NCBI GenBank assembly: GCA_964427785.1 | Contig: CAYRVJ010000001.1 | Coordinates: 1 to 48,896 of the forward strand | Reading direction: 5' to 3' | Source of the DNA: an uncultured Alphaproteobacteria bacterium | GTDB lineage: Bacteria; Pseudomonadota; Alphaproteobacteria; SHNJ01 | Length of the DNA stretch: 48,896 nt | Shown: positions 10,870 to 39,854 of the stretch, in pieces | Layout: the number at the start of each line of letters is the position of its first letter | How positions within the stretch are numbered: position 1 is the first letter of the stretch | Program-made: the position numbers and the translations under genes | Notes under the pieces: model-generated | Seen by the model: only the letters and a program-made list of their open reading frames with translations | Databases searched by the model: none | What the model was told of the DNA's origin: nothing

Positions 10870-10883
10870 TTGATCTGAATCAA
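10870..10883. promoter_or_regulatory. FNR/CRP-family binding site (TTGAT-CTGA-ATCAA) forming a class II promoter for moaA
   Basis: Perfect palindrome. On the minus strand a CATAAT -10 hexamer (10842-10847) starts ~30 nt from the box centre, which places the centre near -41.5. Confidence 0.7.
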
Positions 10884-11209: not shown

Positions 11210-11911
11210 ATGAACTTGGCCAGCACCATTCAGAGAACAGCGTTCTTCCAAAGCGTAGATCCACAAACCATCGAACATCTCGCAAAACAATGCCATCAAA
11301 AAACCTTCGCTAAAGGCCGCGATTTATTTGCCATGGGCGACCAGGCATCCGCATTTTTTATTATTTTAGATGGTTGGGTAAAGCTCTATCGCGTTTCTAG
11401 AGAAGGGGAAGAAACCATCATTCATGTTTTTGGACCCGGGGAATCTTTTGCCGAAGCTGCCGTTTTCAATGACAGTAAAACATATCCTGTAAACGCGCAG
11501 GCGGTTGAAGATGTCTCTGTTATTGAAATCCCCCGCAGCTTTTTTATCAAAAAGATTGAAGAAAACAGCCAGTTTGCTCTTCGTATGCTTGGGGCTATTG
11601 CCGCGCGGCAGCATTATCTAGTGCAGCAGCTTGAACAAGTTACAACCCGTACCGCGCCGCAACGAATAGGTGCTTTTCTAATACGTTTTTGCAAAAAGGA
11701 AAAGCAAGGGTCGGCTGGCTGGACGGTTGATCTTCCTTATGATAAATCCATCATATCTACCCGCCTTAGCATTAAACCGGAGACGTTCTCGCGCGCGCTG
11801 GCCAAACTTGAACCCCATGGTGTTGCTGTCAAAGGCCGCAGCATATGGATCGCCGATATGAAAAAACTCGCGGAATATTGCGACTTGTCTTTGCAGGAGA
11901 CACCTTGCTAG
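11210..11911 (+). CDS. CRP/FNR-family transcription regulator without an N-terminal Cys cluster (Dnr/NnrR-like)
   Basis: cNMP-binding-like beta-roll (FAKGRDLFAMGDQASAFFIILDGWVKLYR) and a C-terminal HTH with the FNR-type recognition helix (PETFSRALAKLE). There is no FNR-type Cys cluster. It is adjacent to nnrS. Confidence 0.8.
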   Translation: MNLASTIQRTAFFQSVDPQTIEHLAKQCHQKTFAKGRDLFAMGDQASAFFIILDGWVKLYRVSREGEETIIHVFGPGESFAEAAVFNDSKTYPVNAQAVEDVSVIEIPRSFFIKKIEENSQFALRMLGAIAARQHYLVQQLEQVTTRTAPQRIGAFLIRFCKKEKQGSAGWTVDLPYDKSIISTRLSIKPETFSRALAKLEPHGVAVKGRSIWIADMKKLAEYCDLSLQETPC

Positions 11912-24476: not shown

Positions 24477-25220
24477 ATGATTGCATTGCCGAAAATTTTA
24501 AGCGCTTCTAAAAAACCTCAGTTGTTCGACGGTTTGAGCGAAAGCAGTTTGCAGAAGCTTTTATCCTGTTCTGTTATACAAGAACATGAGGCGATGAAAA
24601 TTCTTGTTCAACAAGGAGACACGCCCGAAGGCATTTATTTAGTTATAGACGGCACTGCTAAAACATTTCGGCTAAATGAAGGGGGAGGAGAGGCTACAAT
24701 ACGGATGCTGGAATCCGGAGACACTTGTATGGAAGCGGTTCTCTTTATGGGAGGGCTTTCCCCGATCTTCGTACAAGCTCTAACAAAATGTAAGCTTCTT
24801 ATGATTCCAGATAGGATAGTAAAAAGTCATGTTTTGGCCGATTCTGGCTTCGCTGTAAATATTTTGCGGATTGTGACGCGGCATTACAAGAACGCAATGC
24901 ATCAAATCGACGCAATGAACATCAAGTCGCCGCTGCAGAGGGTCGGGTACTATTTTCTGAACAGACATCTGGAAGCAGGGCACGATAATCTGGAGTTTAC
25001 GCTGCCTTTTAAGAAGCATACGATCGCAAATCATCTCGGCATGACCCCGGAAACGTTTTCTCGGACATTAAGGCAGATGAAAGACATGGGAATCAGTATG
25101 GAGGATGATCTTATACGGATGAAAGACGCTTTTTGTCTTTGTCATTTCTGTGATTCAGATACGGCTTCTCTCTGCAACAAGGATAGTAAAGGAGATTGTG
25201 AAAGGTGCCCGCTGCATTAG
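24477..25220 (+). CDS. CRP/FNR-family regulator with a C-terminal cysteine cluster
   Basis: cNMP-like beta-roll and an HTH with TPETFSRTLRQM. The C-terminus CLCHFCDSDTASLCNKDSKGDCERCPLH carries seven Cys, while the N-terminus has no FNR-type cluster. Confidence 0.8.
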   Translation: MIALPKILSASKKPQLFDGLSESSLQKLLSCSVIQEHEAMKILVQQGDTPEGIYLVIDGTAKTFRLNEGGGEATIRMLESGDTCMEAVLFMGGLSPIFVQALTKCKLLMIPDRIVKSHVLADSGFAVNILRIVTRHYKNAMHQIDAMNIKSPLQRVGYYFLNRHLEAGHDNLEFTLPFKKHTIANHLGMTPETFSRTLRQMKDMGISMEDDLIRMKDAFCLCHFCDSDTASLCNKDSKGDCERCPLH

Positions 25221-27813: not shown

Positions 27814-29838
27814 ATGTCAGTAGCTGCCATCGCTCTTTCTTTGCCAAAATCCAACGCAAATAAAAAAAATATGCATCCGGATCCAAAAATGGATCATATA
27901 GTCACGTTGTTCGGGGGCACAGAAGTGGATTGTTCTGAAACGGTAAGCGAATATATTTCCGGGTCGGATTGGAGAATCAATGCTAATGCCAACACCGGAT
28001 ACTCGAATGCGGGAATGATTAATAATGTAGCGGGGAAAGTAATCGCCAATTTCTGGCTGGATGAAATATACAATCCCGAAGAAGGCCTGGCGCACCGTCA
28101 GGGCGACATTCATATCCATGATCTTGATTGTCTCACCGGATATTGCGCAGGCTGGTCGTTACGGGCGCTTTTGAATAGCGGGTTTAATGGCGTGGGGGGA
28201 CGGGTATCATCGCGTCCGCCGCGCCATTTCCGCGAGGCGTTGGGTCAAATGAGCAATTTTTTGGGCATCCTGCAATCCGAATGGGCGGGCGCGCAGGCGT
28301 TTTCTAGTTTTGATACATATCTGGCGCCTTATGTTTTTTACGATCAGCTTTCTTTCAAAGAAGTGAAGAAGGCGATTCGTCAATTCGTTTATAATTTAAA
28401 CGTTCCCGCGCGGTGGGGCCAGTCTCCGTTTACGAATATTACGCTTGATATTTCAGTTCCGCAAGACTTGCAGAATCAATTCCCAACATATAATGATTCG
28501 CACCTGTTCAAGGGCATCAAGAGCGATAGCTTGTTCTTGAGAGCTCAACAGCGAGACATGGGCATTCGCTCCCTTGAGGATCTTACATTCAAGCATTTCT
28601 TGCCGGAGATGGAAATGATCAACATCGCCTATTACGAGGTCATGACCGAAGGCGATTCAACTGGGCAGCCATTCACTTTTCCTATTCCTACCGTTAATAT
28701 TACTGAGGATTTCGACTGGGATAGCAAAGTAGCGAGCGCGATATTTGAGAATACAGCAAAAGTAGGTTCATCTTATTTCCAGAACTTTGTTGGAAGCCAA
28801 TATATTATCGACCCAGCGACAAAAGAGCGGAAACCAAATCCTGAAGCTTACTCACCGGGTGCTGTTCGCTCGATGTGCTGCCGCCTGCAGCTTGATTTGC
28901 GCGAACTTTTAAAGCGCGGCAACGGCCTTTTTGGCTCTGCGGAAATGACAGGATCTATCGGTGTTGTCACGCTCAACATGGCGCGGCTTGGATATCGTTT
29001 TAGAGGCGATTTAGAAGGAATGATGCGTGAAATCGACCGCTTAATGGACATATCCAAGTCAACGCTGGAGAAGAAACGCGCCTTTGTTCAGAAAATGCAT
29101 GATCGCGGGCTTTATCCTTATACATCGCGTTATCTTCCATTCTTTCGCAATCATTTTTCAACCATTGGCGTCAATGGCATGAATGAGATGGTCAGAAATT
29201 TCACAGGCGATGCCTATGATATTACTGATGAGCGGGGCATTCAAATATGCATCGATATTCTCGATCATATGCGGGCCAAGTTAGTCGGGTATCAAGAGGA
29301 AACCGGCAATTTGTATAATCTCGAAGCAACTCCGGCGGAAGGCACAACGTATCGCTTCGCCAAAGAGGATAAGAAACATTTTCCGGATATCATTCAAGCG
29401 GGAGCAGGGGAGAATATATACTACACCAATTCTTCTCAGATACCTGTTGATCATACGGACGATCCGTTTGAGGCGCTGGAATTGCAAAACCGCTTGCAAT
29501 GCAAGTATACAGGCGGCACTGTTTTGCACCTTTACATGAATGAAAAATTGTCCGACGCGGGAGCTTGCAAGCAATTCATCCGGAAAGTTTTGGGGAGCTA
29601 TCAATTGCCTTACATAACGGTTACACCAGTGTTTTCGGTATGCGATGCTCATGGATATTTAAATGGTGAGCAGCCGGAATGTCCGCATTGCCGGGCCAAA
29701 ACAAAAGTATGGACTAGGGTTATGGGATATTTCCGCCCTGTTGACAGTTTCAACAAAGGCAAACAAGGCGAACACCGCCAACGTAAACATTTTGTGGAGG
29801 ATTGGATTGATACGGGCAATCTCTTCGCAGGGGTGTGA
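27814..29838 (+). CDS. nrdD: Anaerobic (class III) ribonucleoside-triphosphate reductase
   Basis: 674 aa. The C-terminus has a Zn-ribbon Cys motif (VCDAHGY...CPHC) and the glycyl-radical motif TRVMGYFRPV. There is no N-terminal ATP-cone. Confidence 0.9.
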   Translation: MSVAAIALSLPKSNANKKNMHPDPKMDHIVTLFGGTEVDCSETVSEYISGSDWRINANANTGYSNAGMINNVAGKVIANFWLDEIYNPEEGLAHRQGDIHIHDLDCLTGYCAGWSLRALLNSGFNGVGGRVSSRPPRHFREALGQMSNFLGILQSEWAGAQAFSSFDTYLAPYVFYDQLSFKEVKKAIRQFVYNLNVPARWGQSPFTNITLDISVPQDLQNQFPTYNDSHLFKGIKSDSLFLRAQQRDMGIRSLEDLTFKHFLPEMEMINIAYYEVMTEGDSTGQPFTFPIPTVNITEDFDWDSKVASAIFENTAKVGSSYFQNFVGSQYIIDPATKERKPNPEAYSPGAVRSMCCRLQLDLRELLKRGNGLFGSAEMTGSIGVVTLNMARLGYRFRGDLEGMMREIDRLMDISKSTLEKKRAFVQKMHDRGLYPYTSRYLPFFRNHFSTIGVNGMNEMVRNFTGDAYDITDERGIQICIDILDHMRAKLVGYQEETGNLYNLEATPAEGTTYRFAKEDKKHFPDIIQAGAGENIYYTNSSQIPVDHTDDPFEALELQNRLQCKYTGGTVLHLYMNEKLSDAGACKQFIRKVLGSYQLPYITVTPVFSVCDAHGYLNGEQPECPHCRAKTKVWTRVMGYFRPVDSFNKGKQGEHRQRKHFVEDWIDTGNLFAGV

Positions 29839-29860
29839 TGCGATAGAACAGGAGAAATCT

Positions 29861-30568
29861 TTGCAAAGCAGGGCAAGTGTTCTTCCTATCTATTCTGTGA
29901 CGCCATTTACCATGCTCGACTTTCCCGGCAAGCCATCTTGTATCATCTGGTTCTCCGGGTGCAATATGCGCTGCGCATATTGTCATAATCCGCAGATTGT
30001 TAAGAGTAAGGGTCGTGGCGATGTCGCCGAAATCATGCATTTCCTTCAAAAAAGGCAAGGGCTTCTGGAGGGGGTAGTCTTGTCCGGGGGCGAGGCTTCA
30101 ATCTATCCGGGACTTCCCGATTTCATCAAGCACATCAAAGCATTGGGATATCAAGTTAAACTGGATACGAATGGGCTTCGCCCCGATATTATTTATCATC
30201 TGATGCAGAAAAGATTGCTCGATTATATTGCACTCGATTATAAGGCTCCGCCTAGTAAATTCAAACAAGTCACAGGCATGGACAAATATATCCTCTTTTC
30301 AAAAACCCTTGACTTGCTTTGCGGGCAGAAGGATTTGAATTTCGAAGTGCGCACTACTGTGCATACGGACTTAATGGATGAAGGCGATGTTTCCGATATT
30401 ATCCGCGATCTCGAGCGGCGCGGCTATTCCGGCCTTCATGCAATACAGAATTTCGCGCATAGCGACGAGCGGCCGACACTGGGATTTATGAATCCGCAGC
30501 GACGAGTGTTGGATATTTCAATGATCCATATTCCAAAGACTTTTAATCTGGCTTTTAGGAATTTCTAA
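29861..30568 (+). CDS. nrdG: Anaerobic RNR activating enzyme (radical SAM)
   Basis: FSGCNMRCAYCHN radical-SAM motif. TTG 29861 is preceded by AGGAGA, and there is no in-frame ATG before the conserved core. The ORF-track start at 29663 overlaps nrdD and is rejected. Confidence 0.8.
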   Translation: MQSRASVLPIYSVTPFTMLDFPGKPSCIIWFSGCNMRCAYCHNPQIVKSKGRGDVAEIMHFLQKRQGLLEGVVLSGGEASIYPGLPDFIKHIKALGYQVKLDTNGLRPDIIYHLMQKRLLDYIALDYKAPPSKFKQVTGMDKYILFSKTLDLLCGQKDLNFEVRTTVHTDLMDEGDVSDIIRDLERRGYSGLHAIQNFAHSDERPTLGFMNPQRRVLDISMIHIPKTFNLAFRNF

Positions 30569-30677: not shown

Positions 30678-31925
30678 ATGATCAAATTATCCTACAGCAC
30701 TAATGGCTTACTTTATCTTGACTTATTCTCCGCTATTGAGGCGGTCGAAAGCGTTGGGTATGCGGGAATAGAGCTTTGCTTCGATAAGAGGCAATTTAAT
30801 CCATTTGATCTCGGCAAAGATGATCTTGCGCGAATTAAAAGTTTTCTTGAAGGCAGGATAATTAAGCCTGCTTGCATCTCAACTCCTACCATTGCTTTTT
30901 TAACGGACAGGCCACATGAACCTTCAATTATCTGCCTCGATTTGGCGGGCAGAAAGCAACGTATAGAACTTATCAAAAAAGGCATCGAAATCGCGAAATC
31001 TTTAGGCGCGCCAATCGTCAGTTTTGGCAGCGGTTTTATTCGGGACGAGCATGTAAAGAATCCCGATATAAATCCGACGGATATTCTTATTGAAAGCATT
31101 GCTGAATGTCTAAAGAATATAGGCGATGTCATGCTGGTTATCGAGCCTGAGCCCGGTATGCTGATAGAGACAATCGACCAGGGTATAGATCTTATAAAGG
31201 CGGTAGGTTCGCCGCAGTTCCGGCTGCATATGGATCTGTGCCATGCATATTGTTCGGAAGACGATTATTTTGGATCCATAATTAAAGCGGCGCCATACAC
31301 GAGATATTTGCATGTGTCGGATACGGCGGGAGGATGCAATGTCAAACTGCTTTCTTATAAGAGCGATATGAATCTGGATTTCGATTTCGCCAGTTATCTC
31401 ATATATTTTCCCGACACATGCGATTTCCTTTACTTGGATAAACAGCAGGCATTTTGCTTTTGCGAAGATATACCGAATACATCTTTACTTAAAGCGGTTA
31501 AATATTTGGCTGGCAAGAAATTTGTTCGATATGTAAGTTACTGTGAATTGGATAAATCTTCGTCTGCTCTAGATCGGGAAATCAACACGTATGCCGTTTC
31601 GGTGCCGGGTTTGAGCTTCTGCGTTCTGGACAGGGCAAAACCGATACTGCGCTATCTCAGAACAAAACGAAGCAATGGCAAATCGATATTAGAAAAGAAA
31701 GTTGCGAATACGCTGACTGGCAAAGTGCATTATCACGACATCCCGGGGCAGGGCGAAATCGATTTCGCGCGCACATTCAGGGTTCTGGAGAAAAACGGGT
31801 TTAATGGGTACGCGACAGTGGAGCTGTATCATCATATTGATACATGGGAAAAAGCGCTCACGGAGAGCATGACTATACTTTCAAAGGCTGTTGCAGATGA
31901 TGGGAAGGAGAGAAAATATGCGTGA
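30678..31925 (+). CDS. Xylose-isomerase-like TIM-barrel protein (sugar-phosphate isomerase/epimerase/dehydratase superfamily, EboE/IolE-like) with a ~130-aa insertion
   Basis: GYAGIELC..., LGAPIVSFGSG, LVIEPEPG, HMDLCH, LHVSD and HYHDIPGQGEIDF...GYATVEL follow the canonical order of metal-binding strands in this fold. The segment between LHVSD and HYHD (aa ~218-348) is extra. Confidence 0.7.
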   Translation: MIKLSYSTNGLLYLDLFSAIEAVESVGYAGIELCFDKRQFNPFDLGKDDLARIKSFLEGRIIKPACISTPTIAFLTDRPHEPSIICLDLAGRKQRIELIKKGIEIAKSLGAPIVSFGSGFIRDEHVKNPDINPTDILIESIAECLKNIGDVMLVIEPEPGMLIETIDQGIDLIKAVGSPQFRLHMDLCHAYCSEDDYFGSIIKAAPYTRYLHVSDTAGGCNVKLLSYKSDMNLDFDFASYLIYFPDTCDFLYLDKQQAFCFCEDIPNTSLLKAVKYLAGKKFVRYVSYCELDKSSSALDREINTYAVSVPGLSFCVLDRAKPILRYLRTKRSNGKSILEKKVANTLTGKVHYHDIPGQGEIDFARTFRVLEKNGFNGYATVELYHHIDTWEKALTESMTILSKAVADDGKERKYA

Positions 31926-32421
31926 GGAGAAAAGCTACCTTCGGCGGCTGGGCTGGGATCCCGGCACGACTGGCGAACTGGACCATCGTGAAGTAAGCGC
32001 GCCTTATATTCGCCTGTCTTCGTGGAAGATGGGTGATCGGGGGGATAGCGTGTATCTTTTTGATATAAGAATGACACAGCCGAACGTAAATTTTTTATCG
32101 TCGCTGCAATTGCATTCTATAGAGCACTTCCTGCTAGCAGGGCTTAGAAAGCATTTGCCTCATGCTTTTGTCAACGTGGCTCCAATGGGATGCCAGACCG
32201 GATTTTACTTGGTAACCATTAACGAGGGGCGCGCCACCGCTATATGCGAAGCATATCAGAATACTCTTTTGGACATTCTCTCGGCAACGTCGGTTCCGTA
32301 TGCGAATATTAAAGATTGCGGCCAACATATTCACCATAATTTAAAAAATGCGCAGGTCCTGGCTGAATCTTTGCTGGCCTGCCAAAGTGATTGGCTGAAT
32401 ATTATGCGGACTGCAGCATGA
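31918..32421 (+). CDS. luxS: LuxS-family protein (S-ribosylhomocysteine-lyase fold)
   Basis: LDHREVSAPYIRL, GDSVYLFDIRMTQPN, HSIEHFLLAGLR (HxxEH metal/base motif), APMGCQTGFY and CGQHIHHNL are colinear with E. coli LuxS motifs. GGAAGGAGAG RBS. The ATG overlaps the upstream stop (ATGCGTGA). Confidence 0.8.
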   Translation: MREEKSYLRRLGWDPGTTGELDHREVSAPYIRLSSWKMGDRGDSVYLFDIRMTQPNVNFLSSLQLHSIEHFLLAGLRKHLPHAFVNVAPMGCQTGFYLVTINEGRATAICEAYQNTLLDILSATSVPYANIKDCGQHIHHNLKNAQVLAESLLACQSDWLNIMRTAA

Positions 32422-33578
32422 GTCAAGTCTCTGCAATCCGGACAATTTCTTGTTGCAGAAAGATCGAATATGAAATTATTTCATGCTTGCGTATTTTCGA
32501 TATTGGCAATAGGACTTTAGCCGATATCGGCGCAGGCAAAGGGTCCAAAAGATTTATTGTCTTAGATAAAAATGTTAAGGAATACCGATCTGCGATAACT
32601 TCGTATTTTGATTACTACGGTATTAAAACGCGGATTTCGCTCTTTGAATCTGGCGAGTCAAACAAGACCATTCAGAGAGCCGTCAAGCTTCTGAAAGAAT
32701 TGGATCAGTTTCCTATCCTTCGGCGCAGCGAACCTTTGGTGGCGATTGGCGGCGGCGTGTTGACGGACATGGTGGGATTTGCCGCCAGCATTTACCGCCG
32801 CGGCGTGCCGCATATCAAGATACCGACCACGCTTATGGGGTATGTGGATGCGGCGATTGGAATTAAATGCGGCGTTAATCTTAACAATGGAAAAAACAGA
32901 ATAGGCTCCTTTGAGCCTCCTCTAAAAGTACTTCTTGACCCTGATTTTTTACGCACCTTATCAAATAGGCAAATTTTAAATGGCGTCGGGGAAATCATCA
33001 AGCTTGCAATTATATCAGACGCGAAGTTATTCAACGGCCTAGAGTTGTTGGGAAATTCTTGCGTTCAAAAAAAATTCCAGGGTAGCGATTGCAAGCTAAT
33101 TCTTGATCGTTCGATCAATGCAATGCTCGATAATCTCGCTTCCAATTTATATGAAGAAGATTTATCGCGATCGGTTGATTTTGGCCATACTTTCAGTTTG
33201 GCTTACGAAATGGAATTAGGAAATGATTTGCTGCACGGCGAAGCTGTTGTCGTTGATGTAATTCTGTCCATCTTTTTGGCGAAGACAAAGGGAGTTTTGG
33301 CGGCGGCGGCGGCAGACCGCATACTTAAATTAATAGGGGCGTTTGATTATGACTTTTCCAGGGTGTTTCTAAAAACAGAAATCTTATGGGCATCGCTTCT
33401 GGAAAGACAAAAACATCGCGATGGTCAGCAAAGGATACCTCTGCCATGCGGAGTGGGGAAGCATGTCTTCGCAAATGATGTGACATATGAAGAATTGGAT
33501 CGCTCGAATGGTTTACTAAAGGATTGGATATATGAAGGAAGGAATTTATGCGAACGCCGATTTCTCAGAGCTGGATAA
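32418..33578 (+). CDS. 3-dehydroquinate-synthase-like sugar phosphate cyclase (EboD/EEVS/DDGS-like)
   Basis: GGGVLTDMVGFAASIYRRGVPHIKIPTTLMGYVDAAIGIKCGVNL..GKNRIGSF.PP, GVGEIIK, FGHTFS and LLHGEAV are present. The IGIK..VN loop (instead of the GGKT of true AroB) is, as I recall, typical of sedoheptulose-7-P cyclases. ATGA overlap with luxS. Confidence 0.75.
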   Translation: MSQVSAIRTISCCRKIEYEIISCLRIFDIGNRTLADIGAGKGSKRFIVLDKNVKEYRSAITSYFDYYGIKTRISLFESGESNKTIQRAVKLLKELDQFPILRRSEPLVAIGGGVLTDMVGFAASIYRRGVPHIKIPTTLMGYVDAAIGIKCGVNLNNGKNRIGSFEPPLKVLLDPDFLRTLSNRQILNGVGEIIKLAIISDAKLFNGLELLGNSCVQKKFQGSDCKLILDRSINAMLDNLASNLYEEDLSRSVDFGHTFSLAYEMELGNDLLHGEAVVVDVILSIFLAKTKGVLAAAAADRILKLIGAFDYDFSRVFLKTEILWASLLERQKHRDGQQRIPLPCGVGKHVFANDVTYEELDRSNGLLKDWIYEGRNLCERRFLRAG

Positions 33579-34248
33579 ATTTTCAAGACTGGCCGAGCTT
33601 TGGTGGGATAAAGATGGTGCCATGGGAATGTTGCATCGAATAAACGCCGCGCGCATGAGATTTATCGCCGACAATATCTGCATAGCAGGTAAAAAATCCA
33701 TAGATATAGGCTGTGGCGGAGGTATTTTAACCGAATCTCTCGCGCAAGCGGGGGCATATATGACAGGAATCGACTTGTCAGCGTCTGTCTTAAAAGCGGC
33801 TAGCGTTCATGCGGAAAAAAGCGGGCTAAATATAGATTACCGCTTGGAAAATTGCGAGGAAACGGCTGGAAAAAGTCCAGGGGAGTTTGATGCTGTTTTT
33901 TGCATGGAAGTGCTGGAACATGTTCCGGATCCGGGCCGCACAGTGGCTGCTTGCGCCCGATTGCTGAAACCAGGGGGGAGCGTATTTTTTTCTACAATAA
34001 ATAGAACGCTCAAAGCGTATTTTTTTGCAATTGTCGGTGCCGAATATGTTTTGCGGCTTTTGCCAAGAGGGACGCACATATATAAAAAGCTGATTAAGCC
34101 GCAAGAGCTGTTGATGTGGGCGGAGTCGTCTCATCTGGCCTTGGAGCGCACATCCAGTTTTATTTATAATCCGTTTTCAAGAAATTTCTCGCTGCGGAGC
34201 GGGGCGGATGTAAATTATATTGCTCATTACCGCAAGCCGCATGAATAA
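33532..34248 (+). CDS. ubiG: UbiG-like SAM-dependent O-methyltransferase
   Basis: Colinear with E. coli UbiG over essentially its full length (FSRLAELWWDKDG..LHRIN..R, IDIGCGGGILTESLA, FCMEVLEHVPDP, LLKPGGSVFFSTINR, VGAEYVLRLLPRGTH..KKLIKPQEL, DVNYIAHY). It overlaps the upstream gene by 47 nt. Confidence 0.8.
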   Translation: MKEGIYANADFSELDKFSRLAELWWDKDGAMGMLHRINAARMRFIADNICIAGKKSIDIGCGGGILTESLAQAGAYMTGIDLSASVLKAASVHAEKSGLNIDYRLENCEETAGKSPGEFDAVFCMEVLEHVPDPGRTVAACARLLKPGGSVFFSTINRTLKAYFFAIVGAEYVLRLLPRGTHIYKKLIKPQELLMWAESSHLALERTSSFIYNPFSRNFSLRSGADVNYIAHYRKPHE

Positions 34249-35194
34249 ATTTTTTGCCCTTTCCAGGAGCTATCATGCAATATTGGATATTGCGGCTCCC
34301 GCTTTTTGCGCCCTGTTGTGGTTGGGGGATTTTCCCTCCCCAGCCATCATCGCCCTATCTCTCTTTACCGCATTTTCGGGGTATACCGCCATTTATGCCT
34401 TAAATGATTTAATAGGGCATGCCGCGGATAAGGAGAAAATGCGGTATTCCCTCGCATATCAAGGATATTCTGTGGAATCGGCCCAGGCACGCCATCCTGT
34501 AGCGCAAGGAATATTGAGTTATAAAATGGCGGTACTATGGATGCTCTTTTGGATGATCGCGGCGATAATTGGGGCTTATCTGCTTAACCCCATTATCATT
34601 ATTATATTGCTTGCTGCGGCAGGTTGCGAGATTGCTTATTGTCGGCTGCTGAAGGTAACGCATTGGAGGTTGGTTCTTAGCGGCATTGTCAAAGCGGCCG
34701 GTCCAATTTCAGCGATATGGGTGGTGGATAGCTCCCCTTCGCCAGGGCCGGTTTTTTTATTGTTCATGTGGATTTTTTTCTGGGAAATTGGCGGACAGAA
34801 TATTCCGGCCGATTGGAATGATAAGCGCGAAGATAAGAAAGTGAATGCAAAGACTATTCCGCTTCTGTTTGGGGATGAAATATCTGGGAAAATTGTTTTT
34901 TTTAGCCTGTTGTTTGTCGTCGTTATTAGCGCACTTTTTCCGATAATCTCGCCACTACGATTGGGTTGGGAATATTTAGCCTTGAGCGTGTTTATAGGCA
35001 TTATGTTGCTTATAAAGCCTGCTTATAAGTTGTGCCGCGCGGATCATATTACCGACCAGCCTGCGCGGCTGTTTAATCGTGCCAGCTATTATCCACTGGC
35101 ATTGCTGCTGCTTATGGCCGCATTGATTTGGTATCATCATTTAAAGAACGGCCCCAGCGCCGTTGGCCAAATACTAAATTGGTCATTAATATGA
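34241..35194 (+). CDS. Atypical UbiA-superfamily prenyltransferase (EboC-like?)
   Basis: ~8 TM helices. The first motif is YALNDLIGHAADKE (NDxxGxxxD rather than NDxxDxxxD), followed by an unusual ~25-aa insert before RHPVAQG. The second motif is NDKREDKKVNAKTIP (DxxxD...T.P). The ATG overlaps the ubiG-like stop (ATGAATAA). Confidence 0.7.
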   Translation: MNKFFALSRSYHAILDIAAPAFCALLWLGDFPSPAIIALSLFTAFSGYTAIYALNDLIGHAADKEKMRYSLAYQGYSVESAQARHPVAQGILSYKMAVLWMLFWMIAAIIGAYLLNPIIIIILLAAAGCEIAYCRLLKVTHWRLVLSGIVKAAGPISAIWVVDSSPSPGPVFLLFMWIFFWEIGGQNIPADWNDKREDKKVNAKTIPLLFGDEISGKIVFFSLLFVVVISALFPIISPLRLGWEYLALSVFIGIMLLIKPAYKLCRADHITDQPARLFNRASYYPLALLLLMAALIWYHHLKNGPSAVGQILNWSLI

Positions 35195-35793
35195 CCAGCA
35201 TCATTGTCGCCGGTGGCGCAGTTATTATATTAGTTCTTATATTATATATTAGGAGTGTGGCAGGGACGCCGCCCGGAATTAATCGAAATCCGGCGGACGA
35301 TATTTTAAGTTGTATGCATATAGAGAAATTAAGTCCGGAATCTGGCGAGAATAATGCGCGGAGTGGGCTAAAAGATAATGGGACTGTCAGAATAAAAGCT
35401 TTTGTCCATAAAAGCGCACCGCAATTGCCTGGTCGACTATTATCTTTAGAAAATAAGAGCATATTGCCAAACCGCAGCAATAGAAAGGGCAGGCGCTCCC
35501 AGTATTATATCGCCCCACATTCCGGCTTAAAGAGCAAGAGGGGCAGAGGTAGGAAGCGTGTGCGTGCCGTGGCATCAGAGGATTTGATTGGTCAACAATT
35601 ACACTTGTTAAGTCCATGCTTTAACCGTATGTCAGATCCGGAGTTTATCAAAAAAGCAACTAACGGTATTAAGATAAGCAAATATACTGATGGCATTAAG
35701 ATAAGTGCAGATAAAGTCAATATTAAAAAATATCCTTATTGGTTAACTACCGCTAAGGATGCGATGTTAAAAGTAAACATCCGTAGCAGATAG
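35191..35793 (+). CDS. Hypothetical N-terminally membrane-anchored, highly basic protein
   Basis: ATG 35191 overlaps the UbiA-like stop (ATGA). It has one TM helix (IIVAGGAVIILVLILYI) followed by a K/R-rich soluble region (KGRRSQ, KSKRGRGRKRVR). No recognisable domain. Confidence 0.5.
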   Translation: MTSIIVAGGAVIILVLILYIRSVAGTPPGINRNPADDILSCMHIEKLSPESGENNARSGLKDNGTVRIKAFVHKSAPQLPGRLLSLENKSILPNRSNRKGRRSQYYIAPHSGLKSKRGRGRKRVRAVASEDLIGQQLHLLSPCFNRMSDPEFIKKATNGIKISKYTDGIKISADKVNIKKYPYWLTTAKDAMLKVNIRSR

Positions 35794-36783: not shown

Positions 36784-36836
36784 GTTCCCCTGCGCTCAAT
36801 TTAATTTTGCGCAGTTTTTTTATTTGGGGAATTTCT

Positions 36837-38447
36837 ATGAGGCATTTTTTATTTATTTTTGCTTTTATTTTATCGGCATCGTTCGCCATTGCGGCAGAAG
36901 CGGCGGAATACCGCCTTACCATTGCGCGCGAAACCGTCAATATTACCGGTAAACCGGTTGAAAAGATAACTGTTAATGGCACTATTCCGGCACCGACATT
37001 ACGTTTTACTGACGGCGAGGATGTCGTTATCCATGTCACCAACAATATGGACGAGCCGTCCTCGATCCACTGGCACGGTCTGATCCTGCCCGGCGAGATG
37101 GATGGCGTCCCTGGCTTTAACGGTTTTCCGGGTATTAAACCGCATTCGACTTTCACCTACCGTTTTAAAATCCGGCAGACTGGTACCTATTGGTATCACG
37201 CGCACAGCATGGGCCAGGAACAGGACGGGCTGTATGGTTCGATCATAGCCGCACCCGCCGGGATTGACCCCATCCGCACCGACCGCGATTATGTAATCGT
37301 GCTGTCGGATTTTACCGACGAAGATTCGGACGACATTATGGCCAATCTGAAAATGGCCTCGGATTACTATAACGTCGCGCGCCGGACGATTGGCGATTTC
37401 TTGGGCGATGTGAAAGCCAAAGGTTTCGATAAGGCTTGGAAAGATGCCAAGGATTGGGGCGATATGCGCATGTCGCCGACGGATCTTTCGGATGTTGGCG
37501 GTTACACATTCCTAATTAACGGCAAAACGCCCGCGCAAAACTGGACAGGAATTTTTAAATCCGGCGAACGTGTGAGACTGCGCTTTATCAACGCGTCCGC
37601 CATGTCGATTTACGATGTACTACGCATTCCGGGCCTGAAAATGACGGCGGTGCAGGCAGACGGGCAGAATATCGAACCCCTGAAAATAGACGAGTTCCGT
37701 TTCGCGCCGGCGGAAACATATGATGTCGTGATCACGCCGGAAGAAGACAAAGCTTATACCATCGCCGCCGAATCCATCGACCGCACCGGATTTGCCATCG
37801 GCACGCTTGCGCCGCGCGAAGGTATGAAAGCCGAAATCCCGCCGCATCGCCCGCGCGCGCTTCTGACGATGGGCGATATGGGCGGCATGATGGATATGGA
37901 AGATATGGTGATGACGCCGGAAGACATGAAAAGCGGCTGGGCCGAAGCCGGAACGCCCAAAGACGATAAGGCGCTTAGCTATAAAGATCTGCGTTATGCC
38001 GGAATCCAGAAAGACACGCGCGAACCTGGGCGTACCATCGAAGTGCGTTTGGGCGGGAATATGGAACGGTATATCTGGACGATCAATGGAAAGAAGTTCA
38101 TCGATGCCGATCCGATCCGCCTAAAATATGGTGAACGGGTACGGTTGAATTTTACCAATGACACGATGATGGCGCATCCGATGCATTTGCATGGCATGTT
38201 CGTGCAATTGGAAAACGGACAGCCTGCGGAAAAACTGCCCAACAAGCACACCGTGATCGTCCCGCCGGGACAATCTTATTCGGTGCTGCTAACAGCGGAC
38301 GAAGCCGGAGAATGGGCGTTCCACTGCCATCTTTTATTCCACATGATGTCGGGAATGATGACCAAAGTGGTGGTCGCCAAACTGGATGCGGTGGATATTC
38401 CCGATAATATTCCCGCACCGGCCCAAGGAGGTTCCCATGCGCATTAA
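36837..38447 (+). CDS. copA: Copper-resistance multicopper oxidase (CopA/PcoA type)
   Basis: Four copper-ligand motifs are present (IHWHG, YHAHS, HPMHLHG, HCHLLFHMMSGM), together with a Met-rich loop (MGDMGGMMDMEDMVM). ATG 36837 precedes a signal-like N-terminus. Confidence 0.9.
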   Translation: MRHFLFIFAFILSASFAIAAEAAEYRLTIARETVNITGKPVEKITVNGTIPAPTLRFTDGEDVVIHVTNNMDEPSSIHWHGLILPGEMDGVPGFNGFPGIKPHSTFTYRFKIRQTGTYWYHAHSMGQEQDGLYGSIIAAPAGIDPIRTDRDYVIVLSDFTDEDSDDIMANLKMASDYYNVARRTIGDFLGDVKAKGFDKAWKDAKDWGDMRMSPTDLSDVGGYTFLINGKTPAQNWTGIFKSGERVRLRFINASAMSIYDVLRIPGLKMTAVQADGQNIEPLKIDEFRFAPAETYDVVITPEEDKAYTIAAESIDRTGFAIGTLAPREGMKAEIPPHRPRALLTMGDMGGMMDMEDMVMTPEDMKSGWAEAGTPKDDKALSYKDLRYAGIQKDTREPGRTIEVRLGGNMERYIWTINGKKFIDADPIRLKYGERVRLNFTNDTMMAHPMHLHGMFVQLENGQPAEKLPNKHTVIVPPGQSYSVLLTADEAGEWAFHCHLLFHMMSGMMTKVVVAKLDAVDIPDNIPAPAQGGSHAH

Positions 38448-39153
38448 AATTCTAGGTTTGGCTTTGCTGTTTTTAACTTCTCCCGCGCTGGCCGAAGAAA
38501 TCACCCATGATATGGCGGCGGAACATGGCGGCGGCATTTTCCATATGTTTCGTTTTGAGGCCGATTATGGAGGCAGTTCCAACGGCGCGGTTGCCAGCTG
38601 GGATTTGGACGGCTGGGTCGGCGGGGATGATGACAAGCTTTGGATCAAAAGCGAAGGCGAGCGCGCCGACGGCAGATTGGAACAGGCCGAATTTTGGGCG
38701 CTGTATAGCCGTAACATCGCAACGTTCTGGGATGCGCAGGCTGGCATCCGTTATGATGCAAAGCCCGAATCCACTGCTTATCTCGCCTTCGGCTTTACTG
38801 GGCTTGCGCCTTATTTCTTTGAAACCGAAGCGCATGTGTTTATCAGCGATGAAGGCGATCTCAGCCTGCGTCTACGAGAAGAGAACGACTTTCTTCTGAC
38901 GCAGCAACTTATTCTGCAGCCTTATGTGGAAATCAATCTCTCCGCCCAGGACGTGCCGGAAAACGATATTGGCTCCGGCTTCACCAGCGGCGAGATAGGA
39001 TTGCAAACACGGTATGAGTTCACACGCAAGTTCGCGCCATATTTGGATTTACGATACGAGCGCAAGTTTGGCGAAACGGCCTCTATTGCCGCAAGCGACG
39101 GAGAAGACAAAGACAATTTCATCGCCGCAATCGGTTTGCGGCTTATGTTTTAA
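38437..39153 (+). CDS. copB: Copper-resistance outer-membrane protein CopB/PcoB family
   Basis: AAGGAGG RBS and a signal peptide. WDLDGWVGGDDDKLWIKSEGE...AQAGIRYD... is typical of CopB, and the sequence ends with an aromatic beta-barrel terminus (RLMF). Confidence 0.85.
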   Translation: MRIKILGLALLFLTSPALAEEITHDMAAEHGGGIFHMFRFEADYGGSSNGAVASWDLDGWVGGDDDKLWIKSEGERADGRLEQAEFWALYSRNIATFWDAQAGIRYDAKPESTAYLAFGFTGLAPYFFETEAHVFISDEGDLSLRLREENDFLLTQQLILQPYVEINLSAQDVPENDIGSGFTSGEIGLQTRYEFTRKFAPYLDLRYERKFGETASIAASDGEDKDNFIAAIGLRLMF

Positions 39154-39173
39154 CCCCAACGAAAGAAAAGACT

Positions 39174-39854
39174 ATGAAGAAAATAATTCTAATAATGGCA
39201 CTGGCATTGCTGGCAAGCCCCGCCATGGCCAAAGAATATATCATCAAGGAAGTCAGCGATCCTGCGGGTAAGACGCCTTATTATTTCTCGCCGGACAAAT
39301 TAACCATCCAGCCGGGCGATACCGTCACCTTCGTCAACGTGCAGGAAGACATGCATGATGTGATGTTTATCAGTGTTCCAAAGACGGTTGATGAAATGAT
39401 CATGAGCCCGAAACACGAAAAAGAAGGCGAGAAATGGTCTTATAAATTTACCGTTCCAGGCACATATCAATTCCATTGCCATGCGCATGAGGCACTGGGC
39501 ATGAAAGGTACATTGATCGTCGGTCAAGCCTCGAATGCCGGTGAAACTAAAACGATGGATCACCATAAAATGACGGAAAAATATGAGAGTGATTCCAGCG
39601 GCCATGCAGGGATGGGAGCATCGAATCTTCCGCAAGGTACGGGTAGGATTAACAATGTTGATGAGGACAAACGCACGATCAACATTACCCACGATCCGAT
39701 CAAGGCGCTCGGCTGGCCGAAAATGAAAATGGAATTTCCGGTCGATAAAAGCGTTGATTTATCGGGTTTAAAAGCCGGTGATGCTGTGTCGTTCACTTTA
39801 AAGCCAAGCGCGAATGATGATTACAGCATCAACACGATCAAAAAAGGAGAGTAA
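39174..39854 (+). CDS. Periplasmic cupredoxin (plastocyanin/pseudoazurin-like) fused to a CusF-like copper-binding domain
   Basis: Signal peptide. The type-1 copper motif YQFHCHAHEALGMKGTLIV is present, and the C-terminus GRINNVDEDKRTINITHDPIKALGWPKMKMEFPV is CusF-like. Confidence 0.75.
   Translation: MKKIILIMALALLASPAMAKEYIIKEVSDPAGKTPYYFSPDKLTIQPGDTVTFVNVQEDMHDVMFISVPKTVDEMIMSPKHEKEGEKWSYKFTVPGTYQFHCHAHEALGMKGTLIVGQASNAGETKTMDHHKMTEKYESDSSGHAGMGASNLPQGTGRINNVDEDKRTINITHDPIKALGWPKMKMEFPVDKSVDLSGLKAGDAVSFTLKPSANDDYSINTIKKGE

Follow-up and report, generated by a model that had tools for sequence, protein, structure and literature searches.

Why should a gene for a LuxS-family protein be locked, by overlapping reading frames, between genes for a TIM-barrel protein and a sugar-phosphate cyclase? 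In annotation and in discussion, LuxS usually figures as the enzyme of autoinducer-2 (AI-2) quorum sensing and of the activated-methyl cycle. The question is raised by a 48,896-nucleotide stretch of DNA from an uncultured alphaproteobacterium (contig CAYRVJ010000001.1 of assembly GCA_964427785.1; this whole stretch is called the window here), in which the LuxS-like open reading frame (ORF) at 31918-32421 shares an operon with the genes for these two proteins, a UbiG-type O-methyltransferase and a UbiA-like prenyltransferase, all on the same strand and joined by overlaps. We argue that the gene very probably encodes a repurposed LuxS-family enzyme and that its product is, with the same high confidence, not the S-ribosylhomocysteine lyase of the methyl cycle. 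The best explanation, and in our judgement a probable one, is that a neofunctionalised LuxS works in a five-gene cassette whose cyclitol product is built into a quinol lipid.

By domain and by fold, the ORF is a member of the LuxS family. Its translation scores 123.7 bits against PF02664, the Pfam LuxS family (cut-off 27), and contains the motifs HSIEH, APMGCQTGFY and CGQHIHH. The AlphaFold2 model (predicted local distance difference test, pLDDT, 94.6) could be laid over Helicobacter pylori LuxS 1J6X with a template modelling (TM) score of 0.81-0.90, a root mean square deviation (rmsd) of 1.2 A and 40% identity, and all 18 of the 18 significant fold matches were LuxS structures. His66, His70 and Cys134 correspond to the metal ligands His54, His58 and Cys126 in Bacillus subtilis numbering, and Cys92 and Glu69 to the catalytic Cys84 and Glu57; the metal ligands and the catalytic Cys/Glu pair are invariant throughout the clade of cassette-encoded proteins (the cassette clade). 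The ATG at 31918 overlaps the stop codon of the TIM-barrel gene (ATGCGTGA) and has a ribosome-binding site (GGAAGGAGAG) 5' of it, while the TGA stop overlaps the ATG of the cyclase at 32418 (ATGA). A first-pass annotation, made from the letters alone, had placed a LuxS homolog exactly here, with all hallmark LuxS motifs and overlap coupling on both sides, and had proposed that it was recruited into a biosynthetic operon rather than the activated-methyl cycle; the position, motifs and coupling stand as it gave them, and the recruitment is borne out by the tree and the gene linkage described below.

The protein departs clearly from canonical LuxS. It falls under the cut-off of all ten NCBIfam LuxS equivalogs (top score 130.5 bits against 208), as does the Chloroflexota copy. 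In a tree of 118 proteins, made up of representatives retrieved from 1.84 billion searched proteins, the cassette homologs that an initial homolog search had given and two PDB sequences, a single branch with a Shimodaira-Hasegawa-like approximate likelihood ratio test (SH-aLRT) support of 97 splits 67 rows from 51. The 67-row side is the canonical one, with Asp78 in 64 of 67 rows, and takes in the H. pylori, Haemophilus influenzae, B. subtilis-like and Escherichia coli-like proteins and both LuxS-Pfs fusions. Asp78 occurs in none of the 51 rows on the other side, which holds all cassette proteins and all proteins fused to a TIM barrel, so that the phylogenetic placement proposed as a check in the first-pass annotation puts the window's protein outside canonical LuxS. 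The column statistics agree in detail. The cassette clade retains H11, D37, R39, H54, E57, H58, C84 and C126, and has lost Asp78, present in 100% of canonical LuxS and in 0% of the clade, where Ser, Asn or Cys takes its place. Ser80 (91% of canonical LuxS) is Ala in the clade, Ser6 (likewise 91%) is variable, Ala61 has become Leu, and a conserved N-terminal Trp and Gly have been gained. The window's own protein has Asn86 for Asp78 and Ala88 for Ser80, and retains Arg65, which is found in 69% of the cassette clade. Glu57, Arg65 and Asp78 are crystallographic substrate-binding residues of LuxS (PMC2656534), and H. pylori LuxS simulations show the amino group of homocysteine gripped within the D-W-S-PMGC segment by the side chains of Asp and Ser and the backbone of Trp, and its carboxylate by an Arg (PMC2929236 supplement). 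Taken together, the column statistics and these published roles thus indicate that the catalytic machinery is whole and that the substrate's amino-acid half has lost its anchorage.

The supply of the canonical substrate was examined through Pfs and AhcY. The genome from which the window comes, a metagenome-assembled genome (MAG) of 1.5 Mb, contains a single LuxS-family gene. AhcY is present in it, and S-adenosylhomocysteine is therefore removable in one step without LuxS. No Pfs was found above the cut-off in this MAG, in five further genomes of its family, of which two are 99%-complete carriers of the LuxS-like gene, or in four other proteobacterial carriers. Of 151 sampled Anaerolineales genomes with a completeness of 85% or more, 13 had the LuxS-like gene and Pfs was absent from 11 of these 13. 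Within the window, no protein of the Pfs or MetK families occurred among those scanned at 8.6-35.2 kb, which agrees with the earlier statement that no pfs or metK is nearby (no search for metK was made in the rest of the genome). Of the proposed look-up for a second, stand-alone luxS and a pfs gene, then, neither gene was returned from the MAG.

Conservation of the operon points in the same direction. One genome per prokaryotic species was scanned, a close LuxS-like relative was found in 143 genomes, and the loci of the best 80 of the 143 were searched with the proteins of the window. These 80 carriers are mainly Anaerolineales MAGs, the others including alphaproteobacterial and gammaproteobacterial MAGs, one genome that bears the label Bdellovibrionales and another with the label Bacillota. 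At 58 of the 62 loci with enough flank on both sides, the genes stood on one strand in the order TIM barrel, LuxS-like, cyclase, UbiG-like, UbiA-like, in different species of Chloroflexota, Alphaproteobacteria and Gammaproteobacteria, and separate contig look-ups gave the identical five-gene set. The TIM-barrel gene lies directly 5' of the LuxS-like gene in nearly all carriers (one locus has no adjacent TIM barrel), and at least six protein clusters, at 50% identity, are single chains in which a TIM barrel stands at the N-terminus and a LuxS domain at the C-terminus; canonical LuxS fusions, by contrast, are to Pfs. The first-pass annotation had named three observations that would speak against recruitment, and they came out differently: the gene is indeed the only luxS of its MAG, but it does not cluster with canonical orthologs, and its linkage is conserved. 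A 632-amino-acid frame spanning TIM barrel and LuxS in the Chloroflexota genome G412, which has the full cassette, was rejected as a fusion because a stop codon lies between the two genes. When metagenome contigs were searched with the TIM-LuxS fusion alignment, the patterns caught ordinary LuxS domains only, and no fusion locus. Other composite architectures were met in the family: in P0221 (511 amino acids) LuxS is split by an intein, with Hint and LAGLIDADG domains after about residue 86, near PMGC, and P0157 (462 amino acids) joins a family-2 glycosyltransferase to a LuxS domain lacking Asp78.

What the LuxS-like protein acts on is suggested by its neighbour, the cyclase, which the first-pass annotation had described as a sugar-phosphate cyclase and which can be specified further. 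Among its solved relatives ValA (4P53) is best with an E-value of 4.5e-80, followed by desmethyl-4-deoxygadusol synthase (DDGS; 5TPR) at 3e-65, whereas true 3-dehydroquinate (DHQ) synthases reach 5e-44 or weaker; DOIS likewise ranks behind ValA, and the cyclase's score lies under the aroB equivalog cut-off (236.7 against 305). Assignment as a DHQ synthase was rejected, as ValA and DDGS are far closer and the aroB cut-off is missed. Both the Asp in VDFGH and the His in KHRDG agree with ValA and not with DDGS, and the VDFGH Asp and the His of xHR[DN]G are conserved in the cassette cyclases of other genomes. From the ValA-like ranking and both residues, sedoheptulose 7-phosphate is most likely what the enzyme takes and a C7 cyclitol ketone of the valiolone type what it makes; read from its sequence, it is most likely a sedoheptulose-7-phosphate cyclase of the EEVS type (EEVS, the synthase of 2-epi-5-epi-valiolone).

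Furthermore, a second large clade of LuxS-like proteins without Asp78, from Streptomyces lunaelactis, Amycolatopsis and soil metagenomes, was found beside cyclases as well. In three of four contigs the LuxS-like gene of this clade lies directly 3' of a gene for a cyclase of the DHQ synthase family; the fourth contig is fragmented and no cyclase is visible on it. The clusters read cyclase, LuxS-like, DegT-type aminotransferase and TylF-type methyltransferase (L193:8711-12669), cyclase, LuxS-like, two GFO/IDH/MocA oxidoreductases, epimerase and TIM barrel (L194:8927-14368), and, on a metagenome contig, cyclase (assigned at family level only), LuxS-like and aldo-keto reductase (L196:5726-8484). 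The best solved relative of the L193 and L194 cyclases is again ValA (E 5.8e-75 and 1.1e-85). The genes 3' of the LuxS-like gene encode carbonyl-acting enzymes. UbiG and UbiA are not present in these clusters, and the constant partner of both LuxS-like clades is therefore the cyclase. This linkage is the strongest evidence in our analysis that LuxS-like proteins may process the cyclase product, and the three loci themselves look like undescribed (amino)cyclitol gene clusters.

The chemistry of canonical LuxS shows how such a step could run. The canonical enzyme moves the carbonyl from C1 to C3 via metal-bound enediolates and then eliminates the substituent at C5. Since the LuxS-like protein shares its fold, metal site and catalytic Cys/Glu pair, its chemistry is probably that of LuxS, namely a carbonyl migration assisted by the metal and then a beta-elimination. 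In S-ribosylhomocysteine the open-chain ribose bears an aldehyde at C1, hydroxyls at C2-C4 and the thioether at C5; 2-epi-5-epi-valiolone has the same layout, with a carbonyl at C1, CHOH at C2-C4 and a leaving group, the tertiary hydroxyl, at C5. On balance we favour what the neighbouring sedoheptulose-7-phosphate cyclase makes as the substrate of the LuxS-like enzyme. The first-pass annotation had also thought of a different ribosyl or cyclitol thioether as substrate; a cyclitol is the best fit, given two clades beside EEVS-type cyclases, and there is no sign of a thioether.

In the pathway that we propose, the first step is well supported: the cyclase would turn sedoheptulose 7-phosphate into the valiolone-type C7 cyclitol ketone. 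The LuxS-like metal site and Cys/Glu pair would then shift the carbonyl round the ring, in a double migration, and expel the C5 tertiary hydroxyl, giving a 3,4-diketone. The TIM-barrel protein, proposed here as a cyclitol dehydratase or isomerase partnering the LuxS-like protein, would remove a second water, taking the hydroxyl on C7, beta to the newly formed ketone at C4, and the hydroxymethyl branch would become a ring methyl. C7H12O6 less two waters would leave C7H8O4, which could aromatise, for example to 5-methylbenzene-1,2,3,4-tetrol, a compound with four contiguous oxygens, a methyl and one free carbon. The tetrol ring is the substitution pattern of ubiquinol prior to prenylation and two UbiG-type O-methylations. 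If the C1 hydroxyl were to leave instead, the C7H8O4 isomer would be 2,3,4-trihydroxybenzyl alcohol. Finally, the UbiA-like enzyme would prenylate the ring and the UbiG-like enzyme would O-methylate it to a ubiquinol-like quinol. Such a route would be redox-neutral, would need no O2, chorismate, decarboxylation or C-methylation, and would use all five gene products; in the alphaproteobacterium the operon would furnish a quinone when O2-dependent ubiquinone hydroxylases cannot act. That the cassette yields a prenylated, O-methylated, quinol-like lipid appears rather likely. That this product is ubiquinol itself, made anaerobically from sedoheptulose 7-phosphate without oxygen or chorismate, is a tentative extension about which we are doubtful.

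The features of the cassette are collected in the following table.

Table 1. Genes of the cassette and adjoining features in the window, with the basis of each assignment
Feature	Position	Strand	Basis
FNR-type palindrome, TTGACCCAGGTCAA	30613-30626	+	read from sequence; 65 bp 5' of the TIM-barrel gene
Xylose-isomerase-like TIM barrel, 415 aa	30678-31925	+	Pfam PF01261, 113.5 bits
LuxS-family paralog, 167 aa	31918-32421	+	Pfam, NCBIfam, tree, column statistics, AlphaFold2 model
Probable sedoheptulose-7-phosphate cyclase, ValA (EEVS) type, DHQ synthase-like	32418-33578	+	ranking of solved relatives, residues
UbiG-type O-methyltransferase paralog, 238 aa	33532-34248	+	TIGR01983, 262 bits against cut-off 103
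UbiA-superfamily prenyltransferase	34241-35194	+	Pfam UbiA, 90.2 bits
Sixth ORF, about 200 aa, one membrane helix and basic tail	35191-35793	+	ATGA-coupled

Among the partner proteins, the TIM barrel gave weak matches to the models of ketose 3-epimerases and of IolO/IolE-type enzymes. The methyltransferase of a Chloroflexota cassette reaches 257 bits against the UbiG model TIGR01983, close to the window's own, and a second, canonical UbiG is encoded in the same MAG on contig C112. The cassette UbiA-like protein is far under the UbiA, MenA and archaeal equivalog cut-offs, and its first motif, ND[LI][VI]Gxx[VA]D, is conserved across the carriers (the window and 80 related loci); the canonical UbiA of the genome lies elsewhere, on contig C127. 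The sixth ORF was found by tblastn at none of the 80 carrier loci and had no NCBIfam family match; it is probably outside the conserved system. A scan for promoter and terminator consensus sequences over 30.4-36.5 kb gave no sites above shuffled sequence. At 36807-39854, 3' of the cassette, the GC fraction rises to about 0.49-0.53 and the translated ORFs look like a multicopper oxidase, an outer-membrane protein of the CopB kind and a cupredoxin.

The genes around the cassette bear on the quinol part of the proposal. Judged by its gene content, the window is a nitrate-respiration island holding the cassette. Its genes run moaC/B, moaA, Crp/Fnr, nnrS, pdxH, narI, narJ, narH and narG, followed by a fused narK-type transporter, a second Crp/Fnr, moeA, nrdD, nrdG and the cassette, the two Crp/Fnr paralogs being encoded at 11210-11911 and 24477-25220. 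The longest ORF for nrdG (29663-30568) begins within nrdD, which ends at 29838; the true start is probably at about 29840, because the NrdG proteins of relatives have 241-243 amino acids and start just past nrdD. A regular expression for perfect 14-bp TTGAY-N4-RTCAA palindromes found six in the window, at 10870, 13835, 21653, 24424, 27622 and 30613, of two kinds, TTGAT-N4-ATCAA and TTGAC-N4-GTCAA. A box of this type also stands 78-92 bp 5' of the TIM-barrel gene in the alphaproteobacterial-type carriers L004-L009, L022-L024 and L049, whose LuxS-like proteins are 53-66% identical to the window's, and was not found in gammaproteobacterial or Chloroflexota carriers; FNR would be expected to bind at these boxes. 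NarG occurs in the MAG and in one of the two 99%-complete carriers, about 10 kb from the cassette, and is absent from the three same-family non-carriers. The MAG has two full-length narG genes (G000:C1:17902-21597 and G000:C78:131-3826; 2121 and 2131 bits), which could reflect a true duplication, strain heterogeneity or redundant binning. As regards quinone synthesis, an O2-dependent flavin Ubi hydroxylase is present in all six genomes of the bacterium's family and canonical UbiA in five of the six, while no UbiU/V-type U32 peptidase was found in any of ten genomes (the MAG, the five of the same family and the four other proteobacterial carriers).

Quinone genes adjoin the cassette in another lineage as well. 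Two Anaerolineales genomes, G096 and G084, have the cassette some 7 kb 3' of menB; at the G096 locus (L102:2418-17267) menF, menD, menB, menE, the gene for 3-deoxy-D-arabino-heptulosonate 7-phosphate (DAHP) synthase, aroA, aroE and aroC precede it on one strand, and genes for a PrxQ peroxiredoxin and a NarQ/NarX-like histidine kinase lie 3' of it. Five high-quality Anaerolineales carriers are without MenB and MqnA/D. That the cassette simply replaces menaquinone in Anaerolineales was considered and rejected, since six of the 13 carriers in the 151-genome sample have MenB.

The evidence has to be weighed against other accounts of the LuxS-like gene. It could be a working S-ribosylhomocysteine lyase that detoxifies or recycles the by-product of the methyltransferase, or furnishes 4,5-dihydroxy-2,3-pentanedione (DPD); the first-pass annotation had raised both the recycling of S-ribosylhomocysteine derived from S-adenosylhomocysteine and the supply of DPD, and both are now disfavoured by carriers without Pfs, by the presence of AhcY and by the loss of Asp78 and Ser80 across the clade. 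Further against a lyase are the position of the protein on the non-canonical side of the tree, fusions that join a TIM barrel and not Pfs, and a constant partner in two clades that is the cyclase and not the methyltransferase. We consider a lyase very unlikely, even though it would have its S-adenosylmethionine-dependent methyltransferase within the operon. Some points do weigh against our own interpretation here. The catalytic core is whole, identity to a genuine LuxS is 40% and Arg65 is kept, and residual or even real cleavage of S-ribosylhomocysteine may therefore occur; moreover, the MAG is 67% complete, and two of the 13 Anaerolineales carriers have Pfs. Alternatively, the LuxS-like and TIM-barrel proteins might precede the cyclase and isomerise or epimerise an open-chain sugar phosphate to an unusual heptulose phosphate for cyclisation. 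Gene order also fits a step before the cyclase, the nearest relatives of the TIM barrel are, weakly, ketose and sugar-phosphate 3-epimerases and not dehydratases, and the canonical LuxS substrate is an open-chain aldose. We nevertheless hold this account to be improbable: ValA-like cyclases suggest ordinary sedoheptulose 7-phosphate, which needs no tailoring; the actinobacterial order is cyclase, LuxS-like, then aminotransferase or reductase, as for enzymes acting on a ketone; and a LuxS-type elimination on a heptulose phosphate would be expected to cost the hydroxyl or phosphate that the cyclase needs. The VDFGH Asp and the KHRDG His used for the cyclase assignment are reportedly the two sites that separate EEVS from DDGS (Kean et al. 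2014). That two EEVS fingerprint sites do exist is documented (PMC4426668).

A milder alternative leaves the LuxS-like protein in the role proposed here and makes the end product a specialised metabolite, such as a cyclitol bearing a prenyl group, an antioxidant resembling gadusol or a signal like BE-40644 or those of the ebo and thallusin kind. The known EEVS products are all secondary metabolites or sunscreen (PMC4426668, PMC5133447). The distribution of the cassette is patchy (13 of 151 Anaerolineales, two of five same-family genomes), and about half of the Anaerolineales carriers (MenB in six of 13) also have menaquinone genes. The Asp-rich motif of the UbiA-like enzyme is atypical, with Gly where UbiA enzymes usually carry the second Asp, and the enzyme could accordingly prenylate a non-aromatic acceptor. 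These observations weigh against a quinol, as does the 99%-complete carrier G537, which is without NarG. Chloroflexota, moreover, are not known as ubiquinone producers. A specialised metabolite fits less well with a methyltransferase at UbiG equivalog level in two phyla, with a cassette that has no terpene cyclase, regulator, transporter or resistance gene, with linkage to men and aro genes in one lineage and, in a second, to nitrate-respiration genes under presumed FNR control, and with alphaproteobacterial carriers that are without UbiU/V. We therefore judge it unlikely, albeit the most serious of the alternatives, and retain the quinol-like lipid as the favoured product.

These findings change how the LuxS family is to be read. 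A sizeable share of it consists of other enzymes, in at least two clades and in hundreds of Chloroflexota besides Proteobacteria and Actinobacteria, with the catalytic core kept, the binding of homocysteine lost and a sedoheptulose-7-phosphate cyclase as constant companion. Such genes are now labelled S-ribosylhomocysteine lyase, and can hence be mistaken for those of AI-2 producers; the annotation calls for correction. Cyclitol natural-product chemistry gains a candidate enzyme type and, if the full route to ubiquinol is real, LuxS-like proteins would quite generally partner EEVS-type cyclases on the way to cyclitol natural products. A sugar-derived quinol would bear on how nitrate respirers without UbiU/V obtain a high-potential quinone in the absence of oxygen, on whether Chloroflexota own such a quinone and on the origin of high-potential quinones; if the product were ubiquinol, the cassette would be a third way to ubiquinone. 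In a literature of more than 8 million papers and preprints, "LuxS" and "valiolone" occur together only in PMC8756737, and no description of the cassette was found; in that paper a neighbourhood table of a Chloroflexi MAG shows the five genes beside nirS, uncommented.

Compared with canonical LuxS (1J6X; B. subtilis 1J98 and 1YCL), the LuxS-like protein has the fold, the His-His-Cys metal site, the Cys84/Glu57 pair, His11 and Arg39 in common. Unlike it, the protein lacks Asp78, Ser80 and Ser6, has an extra N-terminal Trp/Gly segment, forms a clade of its own, has no Pfs partner and is tied to a TIM barrel, by coupling or by fusion, and by coupling to an EEVS-type cyclase. The ebo cluster (eboA-F), tied to thallusin and to scytonemin export, has three enzyme classes in common with the cassette and also leads to a prenylated cyclitol-derived aromatic head; however, EboD converts mannose 6-phosphate to a C6 inosose, whereas the cassette cyclase is ValA-like, and both LuxS and UbiG are absent from the ebo cluster. 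None of the TIM-barrel, cyclase and UbiA-like proteins matched an Ebo family model at E 0.01 or better, and no TatD-type or phosphodiesterase-type gene is present in the cassette; on these grounds and that of the ValA-like cyclase, its identification as an ebo cluster was rejected. With UbiT, UbiU and UbiV the cassette would share a purpose, ubiquinone for anaerobic respiration. UbiU and UbiV are U32-family hydroxylases acting on a chorismate-derived ring, while the cassette would draw its ring oxygens from a sugar. The vertebrate gadusol pathway of EEVS and MT-Ox likewise has an EEVS followed by a methyltransferase on a cyclitol-derived ring, but it has no LuxS-like protein, TIM barrel or prenyltransferase, and it relies on a methyltransferase outside the UbiG type. 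Nearest to the cassette as a pathway is the one for BE-40644 in Actinoplanes sp. A40644, an isoprenoid quinone made from sedoheptulose 7-phosphate via EEVS, dehydration and a UbiA-family prenyltransferase (PMC5133447). The two have in common the pairing of an EEVS with a UbiA-superfamily prenyltransferase and, as proposed for the cassette, the dehydration of the cyclitol, a likeness at the level of pathway logic. BE-40644 is a farnesylated and cyclised secondary metabolite whose cluster has mevalonate-pathway genes; the cassette, on the other hand, packs five genes, one of them for a UbiG-type methyltransferase, into a compact operon, is carried by Chloroflexota and Proteobacteria and is linked to genes of respiration.

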